Shown here: piece by piece, positions 5,721-16,842 of the stretch
Position numbering within the stretch: position 1 is the first letter of the stretch
Layout: each line of letters begins with the position of its first letter
Source: an uncultured Prolixibacteraceae bacterium
GTDB taxonomy: Bacteria > Bacteroidota > Bacteroidia > Bacteroidales > Prolixibacteraceae
NCBI GenBank assembly: GCA_964604035.1
Contig: CAZRXT010000003.1
Location: 1-26,917 of the forward strand
Length of the DNA stretch: 26,917 bases
Reading direction: 5' to 3'
Notes under the pieces: generated by a model
Told to the model about the DNA's origin: nothing
The model's database searches: none
The model's input: the letters and a program-made list of their open reading frames with translations, nothing else
Program-made: the position numbers and the translations under genes

Positions 5721-6392
5721 ATGTCTGTTTCAGAAAATCTAAATAAAGTAAGGTCAACTTTACCTGCTGGTGTTAAGTTGATTGCAGTGTCGAAAACGAA
5801 ACCAATTTCTGCAATTGTTGACGCTTATAATTGTGGGCAGCGGCTTTTTGGTGAGAATAAAGTTCAGGAGTTGACCGAGAAATTCGAATCGCTTCCCAAA
5901 GATATTGAGTGGCATTTAATTGGTCATCTTCAGACTAATAAAGTAAAATATGTGGCTTCGTTTGTTGCAATGGTTCATGCCGTTGACAGTTTGAAATTGC
6001 TTGCCGAAATAAATAAAGAAGCTTCGAAACACAACCGGATTATCAATTGTTTGTTGCAATTTCACATTGCTCAAGAGGATACAAAGTTTGGATTAGATTT
6101 CGATGGAGCTTGTGAAATTCTTGATTCTTCCGATTTTCGGGATATGAAAAATGTTCATATATCGGGAGTTATGGGCATGGCAACTTACACCGATAATATA
6201 GAGCAAGTGAGCAGCGAATTTGGTTCTCTTCGGAATATTTTTATCGAATTGAAAAACAGATATTTTACTGACGATTCTGCCTTTTCTGAAATATCAATGG
6301 GAATGTCCGACGATTATCTGATTGCAATTGAGCAAGGCGCTACAATGGTCAGGGTAGGCAGTACAATATTTGGAGAAAGAGTTTATTTGTAA
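5721..6392 (+). CDS. yggS: PLP homeostasis protein YggS/PROSC
   Basis: LIAVSKTKP (PLP-binding Lys), FGENKVQE, WHLIGHLQTNKVK, GVMGMAT, SMGMSDDY and MVRVGSTIFG. Confidence 0.98.
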   Translation: MSVSENLNKVRSTLPAGVKLIAVSKTKPISAIVDAYNCGQRLFGENKVQELTEKFESLPKDIEWHLIGHLQTNKVKYVASFVAMVHAVDSLKLLAEINKEASKHNRIINCLLQFHIAQEDTKFGLDFDGACEILDSSDFRDMKNVHISGVMGMATYTDNIEQVSSEFGSLRNIFIELKNRYFTDDSAFSEISMGMSDDYLIAIEQGATMVRVGSTIFGERVYL

Positions 6393-6415
6393 TGTTAACT
6401 TAAAATATATAAGCT

Positions 6416-7411
6416 ATGATCAGTTTGGAAACCAATTACATGGGGTTGGTATTAAAAAATCCACTTGTAGCAGGAAGTTCGGGTTTTACTGGCTCGGCCA
6501 AGTTGATAAAACAATTGGCTGCGGCTGGAGTTGGGGCAGTGGTTTTGAAATCGCTGTTCGAAGAGCAAATAAATATTGAATCTCGAAAAATTGTCTCTTC
6601 CAACGATCAAAATTACAGTTATCCGGGAGCCGAAGAGTACATCCGAAACTATACGAAAAGCAATACTCTTCAGCAATATCTCGATTTGATTAGGGAAGTA
6701 AAAAAGGCTGTTGATATCCCCGTTATTGCAAGCATAAATTGTGTTGGTAATTCCGATTGGACAACTTTTGCTAGAGATATTGAAGCTGCCGGTGCCAATG
6801 CTATCGAGCTAAATATCTTCGAACTGGCTGTTGATAGGAATATTTCAGCCGAAAAATATGAACAGAAATACCTCGATATTTTAAGGGCGGTAAAAAAGAA
6901 TATTTCGATTCCTGTTGCGGTCAAAATCAGTCAGTATTTTACAAATATTGTGCGCGTGGTTGACCAACTTTATGCTAATGGAGCCAATTCGGTTGTCCTT
7001 TTTAATCGTTTTTGGGAGCCAGACATTGATTTGGAGAAACTTGAAATTACAACTGCAAGTATTGTTAGTTCGCCCAACGATTTGACTAAAACGTTGCGAT
7101 GGACAGGCATTGTTAATGGGGTGCTTCCCAATGTGCAAATTGCCGCTTCTACAGGTATTCACAATGGCGATGGCGTTCTGAAAGCAATTTTGGCTGGAGC
7201 TCAGGTTGCTCAGCTTTGTTCAACATTGTATATCAATGGGTATGGAGTTGTAGAGCAAATGTTGACAGAGATGGAGTCTTTTATGAAAAAATGGAATTTC
7301 AATTCAATTGCCGACTTTAGAGGTAAATTGAATTATTCTGAAATTCCGGCTTTTGATAAATATGAAAGGGTTCAGTTTATGAAATATTTCTCAGGTAAAG
7401 AGTTGATATAA
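6416..7411 (+). CDS. Dihydroorotate dehydrogenase-like FMN protein (DHOD_like), not a canonical PyrD
   Basis: YMGLVLKNPLVAGSS, VVLKSLFEEQI, PVIASINC, PVAVKI, VVLFNRF and STGIH...LAGAQVAQLCSTLY. The catalytic ELNxSCPN loop is replaced by ELNIFEL. Confidence 0.88.
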   Translation: MISLETNYMGLVLKNPLVAGSSGFTGSAKLIKQLAAAGVGAVVLKSLFEEQINIESRKIVSSNDQNYSYPGAEEYIRNYTKSNTLQQYLDLIREVKKAVDIPVIASINCVGNSDWTTFARDIEAAGANAIELNIFELAVDRNISAEKYEQKYLDILRAVKKNISIPVAVKISQYFTNIVRVVDQLYANGANSVVLFNRFWEPDIDLEKLEITTASIVSSPNDLTKTLRWTGIVNGVLPNVQIAASTGIHNGDGVLKAILAGAQVAQLCSTLYINGYGVVEQMLTEMESFMKKWNFNSIADFRGKLNYSEIPAFDKYERVQFMKYFSGKELI

Positions 7412-13145: not shown

Positions 13146-14030
13146 ATGAATAAAATAAGTCAAGAAATATTGAGTGGGAATATTTTAGTTTCCGATGGTG
13201 CTTGGGGAACTTTTCTTCAACAAAAAGGTCTATTGCCTGGCGAATGTCCTGAGTCTTGGAATACATTACATCCCGAAAAAGTTCTCGAAATAGCTCAAAG
13301 TTATATCGATGCAGGTTCCGATATGATTGAAACAAATAGTTTTGGGGGCAACCGCATCAAACTCTCTTATTTTGGAAAAGAAGATCAGGTTTATGAACTA
13401 AACAAAGCTGCTGCCGAAATTTCGCGGAAAGCTGCTGGTCCCAACAAACATGTACTTGGCTCTATTGGACCAACGGGGAAGTTTTTAATAACTGGCGATG
13501 TAACCGAAGAAGAGTTGTTCGAAGTCTTTAAAGAACAGGCAATTGCTTTGGAAGCAGGTGGTGCCGATGCTCTGATTATTGAGACAATGACCGATATTGA
13601 TGAGGCAAAAATTGCGATAAGAGCTTGCAAAGAAAACACTTCGTGCGAAGTGATTTGCACTATGACATTTGACAAAACAGATGAAGCCGTTTTCTATACA
13701 ATGATGGGTGTAACGCCTGCCGATATGACAACTGAACTTGTGGATGCCGGTGTTGATATAATTGGTGCCAATTGTGGAAACGGAATGGAAAATATGGTTG
13801 GCATAACCAAAGAAATACGAGCTGCAAACGCTGAAATTCCTATTCTGATTCATGCAAATGCCGGTGCTCCGGTTTTTCAGAACAACGAAACCCTGTTTCT
13901 TGAAACGCCCGATATTACCGCAGGTTTTGTGAACCCGCTGATTGATGCCGGAGCCAACATTATAGGAGGCTGCTGCGGTACAACGCCCGCACATATTAAA
14001 AGTATAGCTCAAATGGTGAAGCGTAATTAG
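13146..14030 (+). CDS. Stand-alone homocysteine S-methyltransferase domain (MetH Hcy module)
   Basis: LVSDGAWGT, AGSDMIETNSFG, GSIGPTG, IIETM, Zn ligands GANC and GGCCGTTP, and ANAG. Confidence 0.95.
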   Translation: MNKISQEILSGNILVSDGAWGTFLQQKGLLPGECPESWNTLHPEKVLEIAQSYIDAGSDMIETNSFGGNRIKLSYFGKEDQVYELNKAAAEISRKAAGPNKHVLGSIGPTGKFLITGDVTEEELFEVFKEQAIALEAGGADALIIETMTDIDEAKIAIRACKENTSCEVICTMTFDKTDEAVFYTMMGVTPADMTTELVDAGVDIIGANCGNGMENMVGITKEIRAANAEIPILIHANAGAPVFQNNETLFLETPDITAGFVNPLIDAGANIIGGCCGTTPAHIKSIAQMVKRN

Positions 14031-14076
14031 TCTATAAATTACTACTACAATATTTTTATAACTAATCTTTTTTAAG

Positions 14077-14751
14077 ATGAATGCTGAAGAGATATTATTA
14101 AAACTTGCTGAATGTGTTGAGTTTGGCAAAGTGAACAAAGCAGCTCCATTTCCACCAGCAATGAAGGGGATGGATGGTGCCGACGAACTTACCAAGCAAG
14201 CACTTGAAATCGGTGTGAAACCTGTTGATATACTGAATGAAGCTTTAATAAAAGCGATGGATAAAGTGGGCGAAAAGTTTACTCAAAAAAAGATTTTCGT
14301 TCCACAAATGTTAATCGCGGCCAAAGCAATGAATGCTTCGATGGAACATTTGAAACCGTTTTTTCAGAGCGGAGAAGTGAAGCGAAAAGGGAAATTCATT
14401 ATTGGCACTGTTGCCGGCGATTTGCACGATATTGGCAAGAATCTGGTTGCCATGATTGTTGAAGGTGCAGGTTGGGAAGTAATTGATTTGGGCGTAGATG
14501 TTAGTGCTGCCAAGTTTTTACAGGCAATAAAAGAAAATGAAGGCGCTGTTGTTGGTCTATCGGCCTTGTTAACTACAACAATGCTTAGTATGAAAAACAT
14601 AGTTGCAGAAATTAAACGTGAGTATCCAAATGTCACATGTCTTATTGGAGGAGCTCCTATAAATGATCAGTTTATGGTTGAAATTGGAGCCGATGGCTAT
14701 TCTTCCGACCCACAGGGAGCTGTAAATTATTTGAATGCTCTGGTTGCCTGA
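14077..14751 (+). CDS. Stand-alone corrinoid (cobalamin-binding) protein with cap domain
   Basis: Cap helices (AMDKVGEKF...FVPQML), base-off His-on motif GDLHDIGKNLV, VIDLGVDV, GLSALLTTT and IGGAP. Confidence 0.95.
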   Translation: MNAEEILLKLAECVEFGKVNKAAPFPPAMKGMDGADELTKQALEIGVKPVDILNEALIKAMDKVGEKFTQKKIFVPQMLIAAKAMNASMEHLKPFFQSGEVKRKGKFIIGTVAGDLHDIGKNLVAMIVEGAGWEVIDLGVDVSAAKFLQAIKENEGAVVGLSALLTTTMLSMKNIVAEIKREYPNVTCLIGGAPINDQFMVEIGADGYSSDPQGAVNYLNALVA

Positions 14752-14775
14752 TTCTGCTTTTAAAATTTGATTTAA

Positions 14776-15513
14776 TTGGATAAAACTGAAAATATCGAAG
14801 AGGTTATCTCAACCCTTTCAAGTTGTTCCGAAACGTTTATTCCCGAAATTGGGAAAGATGATGTTAATCTTGTGAATATCTTGAAAGGGTTGGGCATGAC
14901 TCTTGCCGATGCTGACGATTACCTGCTCGAACTTATTGATAGGTTTACGCTCGAATGCATCCAACTTCTTCAACCCAAAACATGCTTCTCGGTCTATTCT
15001 GACTTGCATTTCGATTTGAAAGAGAATACGATAACCATTTCAAATCAGACTTTCGAAACAGGGAAAACGGTAACTCAATTATTGAAAAAAAGTGAAGCAA
15101 TAGTTCTTTTTGCTTGCACCACGGGTTCGGCAGTTACAAAACTTTCGAAAACACTTCTTTCTGAAGGACATGTACTTGAGGGGCTTTTGGTCGATTTAAT
15201 TGGGTCCGAACTTGCCGAGTCTATAACCGAACATCTGCATGTTTTTATCGGAACAAAATTTGGAAAGGCGGGGCTCAATGTTTCTAATCGGTTTAGCCCA
15301 GGATATTGCAACTGGTCTGTTTCTGAACAACAAAAACTTTTTCCACTTTTACCTGGCAATCATTCAGGTATTCAACTAACACCATCATCTTTAATGATTC
15401 CTATTAAGTCAGTTAGTGGAATTCTTGGAGTAGGTACTTCTGTAAAAAAAGTTGCTTACAAATGCGATGTTTGTAACGACACGAAGTGTATTATGAGGAG
15501 TTCTGGATTGTAG
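14776..15513 (+). CDS. Stand-alone B12-dependent methionine synthase activation (SAM-binding) domain protein
   Basis: LFACTTG, DLIGSELAE, RFSPGYCNW, GIQLT..SLMIPIKSVSGILG and C-terminal CDVCNDTKC. TTG start is uncertain. Confidence 0.85.
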   Translation: MDKTENIEEVISTLSSCSETFIPEIGKDDVNLVNILKGLGMTLADADDYLLELIDRFTLECIQLLQPKTCFSVYSDLHFDLKENTITISNQTFETGKTVTQLLKKSEAIVLFACTTGSAVTKLSKTLLSEGHVLEGLLVDLIGSELAESITEHLHVFIGTKFGKAGLNVSNRFSPGYCNWSVSEQQKLFPLLPGNHSGIQLTPSSLMIPIKSVSGILGVGTSVKKVAYKCDVCNDTKCIMRSSGL

Positions 15514-15602
15514 TTTTTGTTCAAAATTCAAATTTCATACATTTAACCTGCTTATACATTGAATCTTTAATCATTTCAATTTCTTCTAATTATTCTTTAA
15601 AA

Positions 15603-15610
15603 TACCTTTG
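15603..15610 (+). promoter_or_regulatory. Candidate Bacteroidota -7 box for the 8-TM/80-aa cassette
   Basis: TACCTTTG matches TAnnTTTG. A near -33 element (TTTC, 15580-15583) lies 19 bp upstream. Confidence 0.45.
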
Positions 15611-15725
15611 GGTCTGTTATTGTTCATTCAAAATTTTGTTTTAAATTGTATACTATTCTTCTGTTTCAATTTTTTACAACTAAGATTTTATTGAGTGATT
15701 ATTTGTAGACATTAAATATAAACTT

Positions 15726-16541
15726 ATGAGAGCTAATAGAATTAATATTGTTTGGTACTTTGTTCTGGCAATTGTTTTTATCAACATTTTCTTCTATGTT
15801 GTTAAGCCCGGGGGAGAGATGGTGTTAACCATCGTAAGTGACTTGCTGCCTGTAATATGTTCCTTGATTACTATTGTTGCTCTTTGGGGAACATTTAAAG
15901 CTTTTAAAGTTCATGATTATACAAGAACAGCTTGGTTCCTGATTTTTGTTGGCATGATTATGAATTTTTTAGGCGAATCTTCTTACTCTTATCAAGAGAT
16001 TATTCTTAAGGTTGATTTAGCAAATATTGCTTACAGTATTTCTGATTTGTTTTGGTTTTCAAGTTATCTTTTTTGTATAACTGGATTGTCAATCCTAATT
16101 AGAGGATACTTTAAAAGCGACTTTCCAATTGGTAATCAATTACATCTTACATTAGTTATGCTGTTATTGGTTTTGTTAATAGCAATTTTGATTGTCGTTC
16201 TACTTCAGCCAATTGTTAAAGATGTCGAAACTCCGATGTTAGATAAGGTCGTTTATCTTTTATATCCAATTTTTGATATGATTCAGGTAATAATTGCTTG
16301 TGCGTTGCTATTTATTGTCCGAAAATTTAAAGGTGGATTAGTAAAAGCTCCTTGGCGATTAATTGCTGCTGGATTTTTGTTTATGGCAGTTTCAGATATC
16401 ATGTTTTCTTATTTTAGCTGGAACGATGCTTATGGTAGTGGCAATTTTATCGACTTAGGTTGGAATGCGGGTTATTTGCTTATTGCAATGGCGGGTTTAT
16501 ATCAAAAGAATTTAGTTAAATCGTTAGATGGAGGTGTATGA
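15726..16541 (+). CDS. Uncharacterised 8-TM membrane protein resembling the N-terminal membrane sensor module of GGDEF/His-kinase proteins, with no output domain
   Basis: Eight hydrophobic stretches by eye. Motifs R-x-AW...G, SISDLFWFSSY, LLYPIFD, W-x-LIAAG...SD and IDLGWNAGY. The protein ends about 12 aa after the last TM. Confidence 0.75.
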   Translation: MRANRINIVWYFVLAIVFINIFFYVVKPGGEMVLTIVSDLLPVICSLITIVALWGTFKAFKVHDYTRTAWFLIFVGMIMNFLGESSYSYQEIILKVDLANIAYSISDLFWFSSYLFCITGLSILIRGYFKSDFPIGNQLHLTLVMLLLVLLIAILIVVLLQPIVKDVETPMLDKVVYLLYPIFDMIQVIIACALLFIVRKFKGGLVKAPWRLIAAGFLFMAVSDIMFSYFSWNDAYGSGNFIDLGWNAGYLLIAMAGLYQKNLVKSLDGGV

Positions 16542-16780
16542 TGGGGAATGTATATGCAAATAGGTATGCTGCTCAAATTTTTGCCATATTGTCGCCACTT
16601 ATTGGTGAGTTAATGGCTAAAGGCGCAATTAGGTCGCAATGTAATAGACTTGGAATTACTGAAGATGGTATTGAAAAACAGCATATTCCTGTGCTTGCCG
16701 AAGGGGTAAAGAAAGCTATGACATTATTTGTTGGGTCTGAAGGAGCGTCGCAAATTGAAAAAAGGATAAGATTAATTTGA
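16538..16780 (+). CDS. Small all-helical hypothetical protein (80 aa)
   Basis: ATGA overlap with the upstream stop, an amphipathic helical pattern (LSPLIGELMAKGAI...FVGSEGASQI), and a terminator directly after. Confidence 0.75.
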   Translation: MMGNVYANRYAAQIFAILSPLIGELMAKGAIRSQCNRLGITEDGIEKQHIPVLAEGVKKAMTLFVGSEGASQIEKRIRLI

Positions 16781-16804
16781 AATGGGATCGATATATTTTT
16801 CATT

Positions 16805-16842
16805 AAAACAGGGCTGCTGAATTTTCAGAGCCCTGTTTTTTT
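16805..16842. terminator. Bidirectional intrinsic terminator
   Basis: AAAACAGGGCT-G-CTGA-ATTT-TCAG-AGCCCTGTTTTTTT between convergent genes. Confidence 0.88.

Follow-up and report, generated by a model that had tools for sequence, protein, structure and literature searches.

What is the function of a membrane protein that looks like a sensor and ends without an output domain, and what does the small helical protein encoded directly behind it contribute? This question is raised by a two-gene locus within a 26,917-bp stretch of DNA (in the following, the window) from an uncultured Prolixibacteraceae bacterium (assembly GCA_964604035.1, contig CAZRXT010000003.1, positions 1 to 26,917). Gene A of this locus codes for a polytopic membrane protein and gene B for a small soluble protein; an initial annotation, made from the sequence alone, had described the two as a self-contained module for signaling or, alternatively, for transport or defense. 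We propose that A and B constitute a two-piece membrane receptor, with B docked beneath A and either passing on or tuning the state of A, a reading to which we assign a probability of about 0.55. It builds on the anatomy of the pair, on the strict co-occurrence of the two genes, on a natural fusion of their products, and on the occurrence of the A domain as a module at the N-terminus of cyclic di-GMP (c-di-GMP) and GAF proteins.

Gene A and gene B form a genuine, tightly coupled two-gene operon (Table 1). The two open reading frames (ORFs) overlap in an ATGA, as initially annotated, with the stop codon of A lying on the start codon of B, an arrangement indicative of translational coupling. For a comparison with other genomes we assembled 29 loci, of which 26 were fetched at one genome per species and three came from congeners; the fetched loci belong to metagenome-assembled genomes (MAGs) of the Bacteroidales type, except for one cultured strain, Breznakibacter xylanolyticus DSM 6779 (L030, with the two genes at 5908-6982). 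A homologue of B lies directly downstream of A in all 29 loci, and the distance between the genes ranges from -4 to +19 bases at the 28 loci in which the ends of both genes were readable. When all neighboring ORFs were clustered, A and B were the sole genes common across lineages; the neighbors at other loci code for a CBS protein, MsrA, a Tim44-like protein, a TPM protein, an amidohydrolase, and a rhamnosidase. The pairwise identities of A and B are correlated (r = 0.71), a value reached in none of 2,000 permutations. Of 401 evenly sampled Bacteroidota genomes, only the one studied here (G000) yielded A or B; in the 400 others, B gave no more than partial matches at noise level.

A natural A-B fusion was found in protein P0037 (348 amino acids [aa]), which carries B at its C-terminus (B profile, E = 4e-15); this position fits a location of the C-terminus of A inside the cell. 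No longer protein containing a B domain was returned by a word-index search, which is weak evidence because the same search also missed P0037. The strict pairing, the fusion, and the stand-alone nature of A bear out the earlier description of an output-less, sensor-like protein with a detachable cytoplasmic partner. Two of the loci were imperfect. The A homologue at L027 (455-1261) contains one in-frame stop codon, which is probably a sequencing error because the contig has a coverage of only 1.8x, and the pair at L033 (6001-6818) in a Draconibacterium MAG is broken by a run of N.

The product of gene A is complete and stands alone; it is not a truncated kinase or cyclase, and it has no cytoplasmic output domain. 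The AlphaFold2 (AF2) model of A, based on 30 sequences, has a mean predicted local distance difference test score (pLDDT) of 87 and a predicted template modeling score (pTM) of 0.88, and shows eight helices (residues 3-26, 30-59, 65-93, 105-130, 138-165, 171-198, 204-232, and 242-267), in agreement with the eight transmembrane (TM) helices proposed initially. Alignment of the N-terminal with the C-terminal half by hhalign (E = 2.2e-5 over 106 columns) shows an internal 4+4 TM repeat made of two homologous halves. The motifs that align between the halves are D-L-L-P with P-I-x-D, A-W...G...E with P-W...G...D, and D..W..x-Y with D..W..G-Y. Given the AF2 helices, the loops contain about 14 Lys/Arg residues on the inside versus about 4 on the outside, a count by which both termini of A are predicted to be cytoplasmic.

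The motifs AW..G, (S/A)D..W..Y, and YP..D, which had drawn attention to A at the outset, are conserved in its orthologues and in distant relatives. Invariant or near-invariant residues of A are E84, D107, W110, Y114, D166, Y180, P181, D184, D224, W232, Y236, D243, and W246, all of which map to outer helix halves or outer loops in the predicted topology. A second conserved set, comprising F60, D64, Y128, P134, G136, F201, P209, W210, and Q260, is placed on the cytoplasmic side by the same topology.

No known family could be assigned to A. It gave no Pfam match at E <= 1 and no NCBIfam match, and a comparison of 30 A orthologues with Pfam at E <= 10 yielded only stray single matches (7TMR-DISM with E = 2.1; MASE3 in 1 of 30 with E = 0.006). 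The ESM feature scores of A to the HisKA_7TM, MASE3, and MASE4 clusters were 0.79, which is chance level, and Foldseek found no match in the PDB at E <= 0.001. A wide fold search returned designed folds resembling G protein-coupled receptors (GPCRs), LYCHOS, and GPCRs, with Z <= 11.3. Since the noise level of the fold search for helical bundles is about Z 13 and all matches fall below it, we claim no GPCR or CREST identity for A.

The family to which A belongs is large. A word-index search with A returned 13 clusters only, and an exhaustive profile search recovered 6,309 representative clusters (50% identity) at E <= 0.001 and 2,115 at E <= 1e-10. The majority of the best 150 matches are stand-alone proteins of 245-290 aa. 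In P0162 and P0164, the A domain is N-terminal to GGDEF, and in P0108 it is N-terminal to three GAF domains; P0121 and P0149 combine the A domain with a sub-threshold PAS_9 match. Because the A domain heads GGDEF and GAF proteins, its motifs belong to a signaling input domain, as had been supposed in the initial annotation. The ESM Atlas contained look-alike stand-alone clusters of A in Spirochaetota and Nitrososphaerota, which we take as a lead only. The family lies outside the curated libraries searched; naming and characterizing it would annotate thousands of "hypothetical" membrane proteins.

Two further architectures were seen among the relatives of A. Proteins of about 550 aa (Table 1) consist of an A-type membrane domain and a common cytoplasmic module of about 250 aa, which is 20-64% identical from one protein to another. 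The module had no Pfam coverage except for a weak PAS_9 match, and profiles of B and of the distant partner described below detected no B-like domain in these proteins; it may represent an undescribed output or sensor module. P0016 (525 aa), obtained in the profile search, is a tandem fusion of two complete A-type domains, a sequence arrangement that hints at a dimer as the working unit of the family.

To see how far the pairing extends, a metagenome scan was made with a distant branch of the A family, and 80 loci were read from their ORF listings. In 8 of them a true B partner follows A, in 27 a different, tightly coupled ORF of 105-125 aa is located downstream, and in 9 A is fused to the 250-aa cytoplasmic module described above; the rest had no small partner or too little downstream DNA. 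The distant partner is characterized by the motifs L-G-E-S-x-R-K-A, E-D-I-P, and F-G-x-G-A-x-x-I-E, the first of which resembles LGPxxA. It gave sub-threshold NitrOD5 matches in 7 of 19 cases (best E = 0.012, about 15-16 bits) and a weak match to PH0832 (2p9x, E = 0.016). At L116, two units of the distant partner are joined in one protein of 232 aa. Some contigs with distant relatives appear to be archaeal, judging from a PCNA-like neighbor in L081 and from the ESM taxa. The pairing of the A family with a small helical partner is thus recurrent but not universal.

For the identity of B, the STAC proteins provide the closest lead. These proteins have 60-90 residues and form a four-helix bundle whose two hairpins are connected by a linker of about nine residues, with an LGPx(x)A motif between helices h1 and h2 (PMC4834066, PMC5715377). 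The founding member Af1502 is related to the domain that joins the SLC5 transporter and kinase domains in CbrA (PMC4834066; PMC5715377, PMC7918813), and this archaeal STAC protein is translationally coupled to the output-less receptor Af1503 (PMC4834066, PMC5715377). In a preprint reporting the structure of CbrA obtained by cryo-electron microscopy (cryo-EM), the tips of h3 and h4 hold STAC in its docked position below the membrane domain (PMC13022988).

With its 80 aa, B falls within the 60-90-residue range of stand-alone STAC proteins. The AF2 model of B (pLDDT 94) comprises two helices (9-22 and 24-38), a loop of eight residues (39-46), and a further helix (47-78). In an alignment of 29 orthologues (78-80 aa), residues N8, P20, G23, G39, F64, G66, A70, and I77 are invariant. 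The break between h1 and h2 contains I-G-E-L-M-A at residues 22-27 (consensus L-x-G-x-x-M-A, with G23 invariant); the Pro of the STAC motif is absent from B, and the invariant P20 is found three residues upstream of the B motif. By analogy with CbrA, the invariant F64-x-G66 would sit where the docking tip of a STAC domain is expected. When the B model was compared with 48,161 representative PDB chains, Af1502 (5a1q_B) took rank 2 and was the best whole-chain match (Z 6.4, root mean square deviation 3.1 Å, 68/68). Re-examination of Foldseek's own list for B placed a designed four-helix binder at the top (Z 5.4), and PF1176 (2hjm) reached Z 3.3.

The family libraries searched contained no STAC model; neither Pfam nor NCBIfam gave a family match for B, and its 28 orthologues had only stray single matches. 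Structural neighbors of B in the ESM Atlas were PAS-HisKA-HATPase proteins of Pseudomonadota and a HATPase_c protein of Myxococcota, as well as small stand-alone proteins of Myxococcota, Actinomycetota, and Methanobacteriota. Taken together, we lean slightly towards B being a STAC homologue, and somewhat more towards B working like one; "STAC-like" is a plausible name for this partner.

For the proposed receptor we infer the docking, the ligand site, the direction of signaling, and the output as follows. A would reside in the cytoplasmic membrane with both ends inside, and the conserved residues E84, D107, D166, D184, D224, D243, W110, Y114, Y180, W232, Y236, and W246 in its outer half could form a binding site for a ligand in the periplasm, such as a cation or polar solute, if the predicted topology holds. 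B would be made in step with A, and stoichiometrically, by way of the ATGA overlap. As a STAC-type four-helix bundle it would dock on the cytoplasmic face of A, as STAC does under the SLC5 domain in CbrA, and a change in A would be passed through B to a partner encoded elsewhere; alternatively, B might tune A.

Several observations speak against such a receptor. With regard to B, DSSP leaves residues 47-78 of the model as one long helix with no clear h3/h4 hairpin, the Z score of 6.4 for the Af1502 match lies within the stated noise range of the tool for helical bundles, and Foldseek found no match for B. The profiles of B and of the distant partner both miss Af1502 in the PDB at E <= 10; according to its depositors, Af1502 behaves as a singleton in sequence searches (PMC4834066). 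B and the distant partner align in register over 69 columns by hhalign, with an E value of only 0.022 and a probability of 2%. With regard to A, the ligand pocket is placed by a predicted topology. As most members of the superfamily stand alone and several have no small partner, A may also have a function of its own outside signaling; several distant relatives without a small partner are followed by uvrC-like or thiL-like genes, as read from the listings. Finally, the neighborhoods of the genome loci contain no conserved third gene that would point to an output.

A rival reading takes A as a transporter or channel, for example for a cation, with B as its cytoplasmic regulatory subunit; the GGDEF and GAF fusions would then be "transceptors" comparable to the SLC5-STAC kinases. 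STAC was first proposed to regulate solute transport, and Af1503 and Af1502 share an operon with an MgtE-type transporter (PMC4834066). The many relatives of A that stand alone, the conserved acidic residues within its membrane helices, and the hint of a dimeric unit in the tandem protein P0016 would also suit this explanation. We nevertheless consider it unlikely, as no transporter family of Pfam or NCBIfam matches A. Also, the fold neighbors of A are 7TM receptor-like bundles and not transporters, although all of them are within noise, and the 4-TM halves of A are parallel and not inverted. Parallel halves are unusual for secondary carriers.

The pair is carried by 3 of 5 congeners. Beyond the genus, searches of 31 further genera of the family, of 24 further families of the order, and of the 400 other Bacteroidota sampled turned up no copy. 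In G003 it occurs in full synteny with the window, and an equivalent hairpin follows B on its 3' side. In G004 the pair lies beside the same beta-CASP gene with a different upstream neighbor, and in G005 it is located elsewhere in the genome. In G001, a MetH-activation-like gene and the beta-CASP gene are 63 bp apart with only the terminator hairpin between them, which constitutes an exact empty site of the kind the initial annotation had suggested looking for. In a quick tree, the A proteins of G000, G003, and G004 group with two metagenome sequences in a single clade (Shimodaira-Hasegawa-like approximate likelihood ratio test [SH-aLRT] support of 99). Between G000 and G003, the flanking proteins are 53-87% identical, A 47%, and B 61%; A thus evolves fast. 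Judged by the flanking genes, G000 and G001 are at about the same distance from G003 and G004. Both loss and gain are possible explanations for the empty site in G001 and cannot be told apart, because the flanks do not place G001 inside or outside the carriers.

Two side observations concern the surroundings of the pair in the congeners. Directly upstream of the pair in G004 is an open frame (L007 2-6205, minus strand) that exceeds 2,068 aa and runs off the fetched stretch; it replaces the methyl-transfer genes seen in G000 and G003. The beta-CASP protein is 82-83% identical in the four congeners compared and is a stable anchor of the pair in G000, G003, and G004.

The low G+C content noted initially was confirmed, with 28.6% and 32.2% in the two 500-bp bins at the pair versus about 38% elsewhere. 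Gene A (32.7% G+C) is at the 2.8th percentile among the ORFs of at least 200 aa in the genome. A consists to 44% of Phe, Ile, Leu, and Val, and after regression on this content its G+C deviation is reduced to z = -1.2. The G+C content at third codon positions (GC3) is 27.7% for A and 27.5% for B versus 37.4 +/- 6.4% genome-wide, about 1.5 standard deviations low. The low G+C content at the pair therefore stems mostly from amino acid composition, and because the deviation is small after correction for hydrophobicity, composition alone is no proof of a foreign origin. The pair is not a recent arrival in this genome, and its patchy distribution fits old transfers or many losses. A probable horizontal acquisition, as initially assumed, was not borne out by this weak corrected composition, the stable site beside the beta-CASP gene, and an empty site that may reflect either loss or gain.

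The patchy spread, the exact empty site, the somewhat low GC3, and the self-contained two-gene unit with its varying neighbors would also be features of a mobile toxin-antitoxin, abortive-infection, or other defense cassette, in which a membrane disruptor is held in check by a small partner. We regard this as very unlikely. Neither A nor B gave a PADLOC match at E <= 1, and no Pfam or NCBIfam defense family matched them. No integrase, transposase, or repeats were present among the flanking ORFs in the window and in the three congener loci, and the neighbors scanned are ordinary metabolic genes and not defense islands. Furthermore, the pair was inherited beside the same gene through a divergence down to about 47% identity in A, and the A domain serves as input module of GGDEF and GAF proteins. 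Slightly less probable still is that B is a small nucleic-acid-binding or transcription regulator held at the membrane by A and released on a signal. This would provide the output that the pair lacks; with 10 Lys/Arg versus 7 Asp/Glu, B is slightly basic, and some of its weak structural neighbors are helix-hairpin DNA-repair domains (endonuclease III, AlkA, MBD4; Z ~5). The scores of these neighbors are at noise level, however; among B and its 28 orthologues, matches to helix-turn-helix or other DNA-binding families were limited to stray single ones, and the conserved residues P20, G23, G39, F64, G66, and A70 mark turns and packing and not a basic surface.

The sequences flanking the two genes agree in part with what had been read from them initially. 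A terminator was confirmed downstream of B, where a stretch of 70 nucleotides containing a hairpin and a T-run folds with -23.6 kcal/mol (z = -4.8); 0 of 200 shuffled sequences folded equally well. A consensus terminator scanner overlooked this hairpin. The terminator is symmetric, being composed of an A-run, a stem, and a T-run, and is 6 bp away from the stop codon of the convergent beta-CASP/RMMBL gene. With an A-run and a T-run on either side, the hairpin can therefore also terminate the beta-CASP gene, and it probably serves both this gene and the pair. A Bacteroidetes-type -7 motif, TACCTTTG (TAnnTTTG), is present at 15603-15610, exactly where the region singled out initially begins, as the sole plus-strand instance within the spacer, and sigma-70-like sites were found at 15627-15654 and 15673-15702. 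The TAnnTTTG motif is not enriched across the window (31 found versus 36 expected), and sigma-70-like sites occur at least as often in shuffled sequence. As neither motif type exceeds the shuffles, the promoter in the spacer stays a candidate. Directly upstream, the plus strand of the window carries three genes at 13146-15513, coding for a homocysteine S-methyltransferase domain, a B12-binding protein, and a MetH activation-domain protein; this trio represents a split methionine-synthase-like set and is followed by the AT-rich spacer in front of gene A.

Table 1. Positions of the features at the A/B locus in the window, and loci or proteins representing related architectures
Feature	Position, locus, or protein	Strand	Details
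AT-rich spacer with candidate promoter	15514..15725	+	212 bp, 20.8% G+C; between B12 methyl-transfer genes and gene A
Gene A, membrane protein, 271 aa	15726..16541	+	ORF; 8 predicted TM helices
ATGA overlap, stop of A on start of B	16538..16541	+	Sequence
Gene B, soluble helical protein, 80 aa	16538..16780	+	ORF; STAC-like
Intrinsic terminator	16805..16842	unassigned (.)	RNA fold; hairpin 16805-16839, T-run to 16842
beta-CASP gene, 466 aa	16848-18248	-	Metallo-beta-lactamase / beta-CASP / RMMBL (RNase J/CPSF-type fold); convergent on the pair
Distant A relatives with 105-125-aa partner	L051, L058-L063, L065, L067, L069, L077, L082-L084, L086, L090, L095, L096		Metagenome loci
Distant A relatives with 105-125-aa partner (rest)	L100, L101, L103-L105, L113, L116, L117, L119		Metagenome loci
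Fused forms of about 550 aa	L052 69-1754, L057 1746-3419, L066 2776-4389, L071 2776-4425, L089 2626-4425, L098 2932-4596, L110 812-2524		
Fused forms of about 550 aa, from profile search	P0121, P0128, P0136, P0149, P0158		

For this genome alone, the significance of the pair is modest, as it adds one small sensory module. A broader view, which we put forward tentatively and hold at somewhat less than an even chance, is that A and B represent a widespread, unnamed class of two-piece receptors in bacteria and archaea, in which an 8-TM ligand-binding module and a detachable STAC-type adaptor would signal purely by protein-protein contact. If this holds true, STAC-like adaptors would be general couplers for several unrelated membrane modules, beyond SLC5 and Af1503, and the simple pair in the cultured strain B. 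xylanolyticus DSM 6779 would be a convenient system for working out STAC function. STAC domains were described ten years ago, and a structure of CbrA by cryo-EM has followed. To work on their function, another membrane partner that is unrelated and has its adaptor encoded separately offers clean genetics, in which B can be removed and A retained, a natural fusion for structural studies, and a cultured host.

Among known systems, small helical domains of the NitrOD5 type (PF11537), which occur alone or fused to REC, resemble the pair by way of the distant partner, below the gathering cut-off of 27 bits; B itself differs from them in that neither B nor its 28 orthologues gave a match. The input domains MASE1-9, 7TMR-DISM_7TM, 5TMR-LYT, and HisKA_7TM share with A a polytopic helical structure with no large periplasmic part and a position N-terminal to GGDEF, GAF, or PAS domains. 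A differs from them in having no Pfam match, in being mostly stand-alone, and in its own 4+4 repeat, and it is set off from the named input domains by the motifs D..W..GY, W..G..E/D, and YP..D.

Another parallel is offered by the SLC5-STAC sensor kinases CbrA and CrbS (MxtR) of Pseudomonas and Vibrio, in which, as proposed for A and B, a polytopic membrane domain is coupled to signaling via a small four-helix cytoplasmic domain (PMC13022988). Their membrane domain is a 13-TM sodium/solute symporter contained in a single polypeptide with a kinase output, whereas A/B has an unrelated membrane protein, encodes the adaptor in a gene of its own, and shows no linked kinase. The nearest parallel is the Af1503/Af1502 pair of Archaeoglobus fulgidus (PDB 5A1Q; Korycinski et al. 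2015, as described in PMC4834066). Af1503 spans the membrane twice and combines a periplasmic sensor with a HAMP domain, unlike A, an 8-TM bundle that lacks both a HAMP and any extramembrane domain, and the motif of B (I/L-x-G-E/D-x-M-A) departs from the LGPxxA of STAC proteins, no link at the sequence level having been obtained. Both pairs nevertheless consist of an effector-less membrane protein, a receptor in Af1503 and a proposed one in A, followed by a translationally coupled helical protein of 60-90 aa. Where h1 meets h2, Af1502 and B each appear to carry a motif that contains Gly and closes with Ala, and their central loops seem to be of similar length, at about nine residues.

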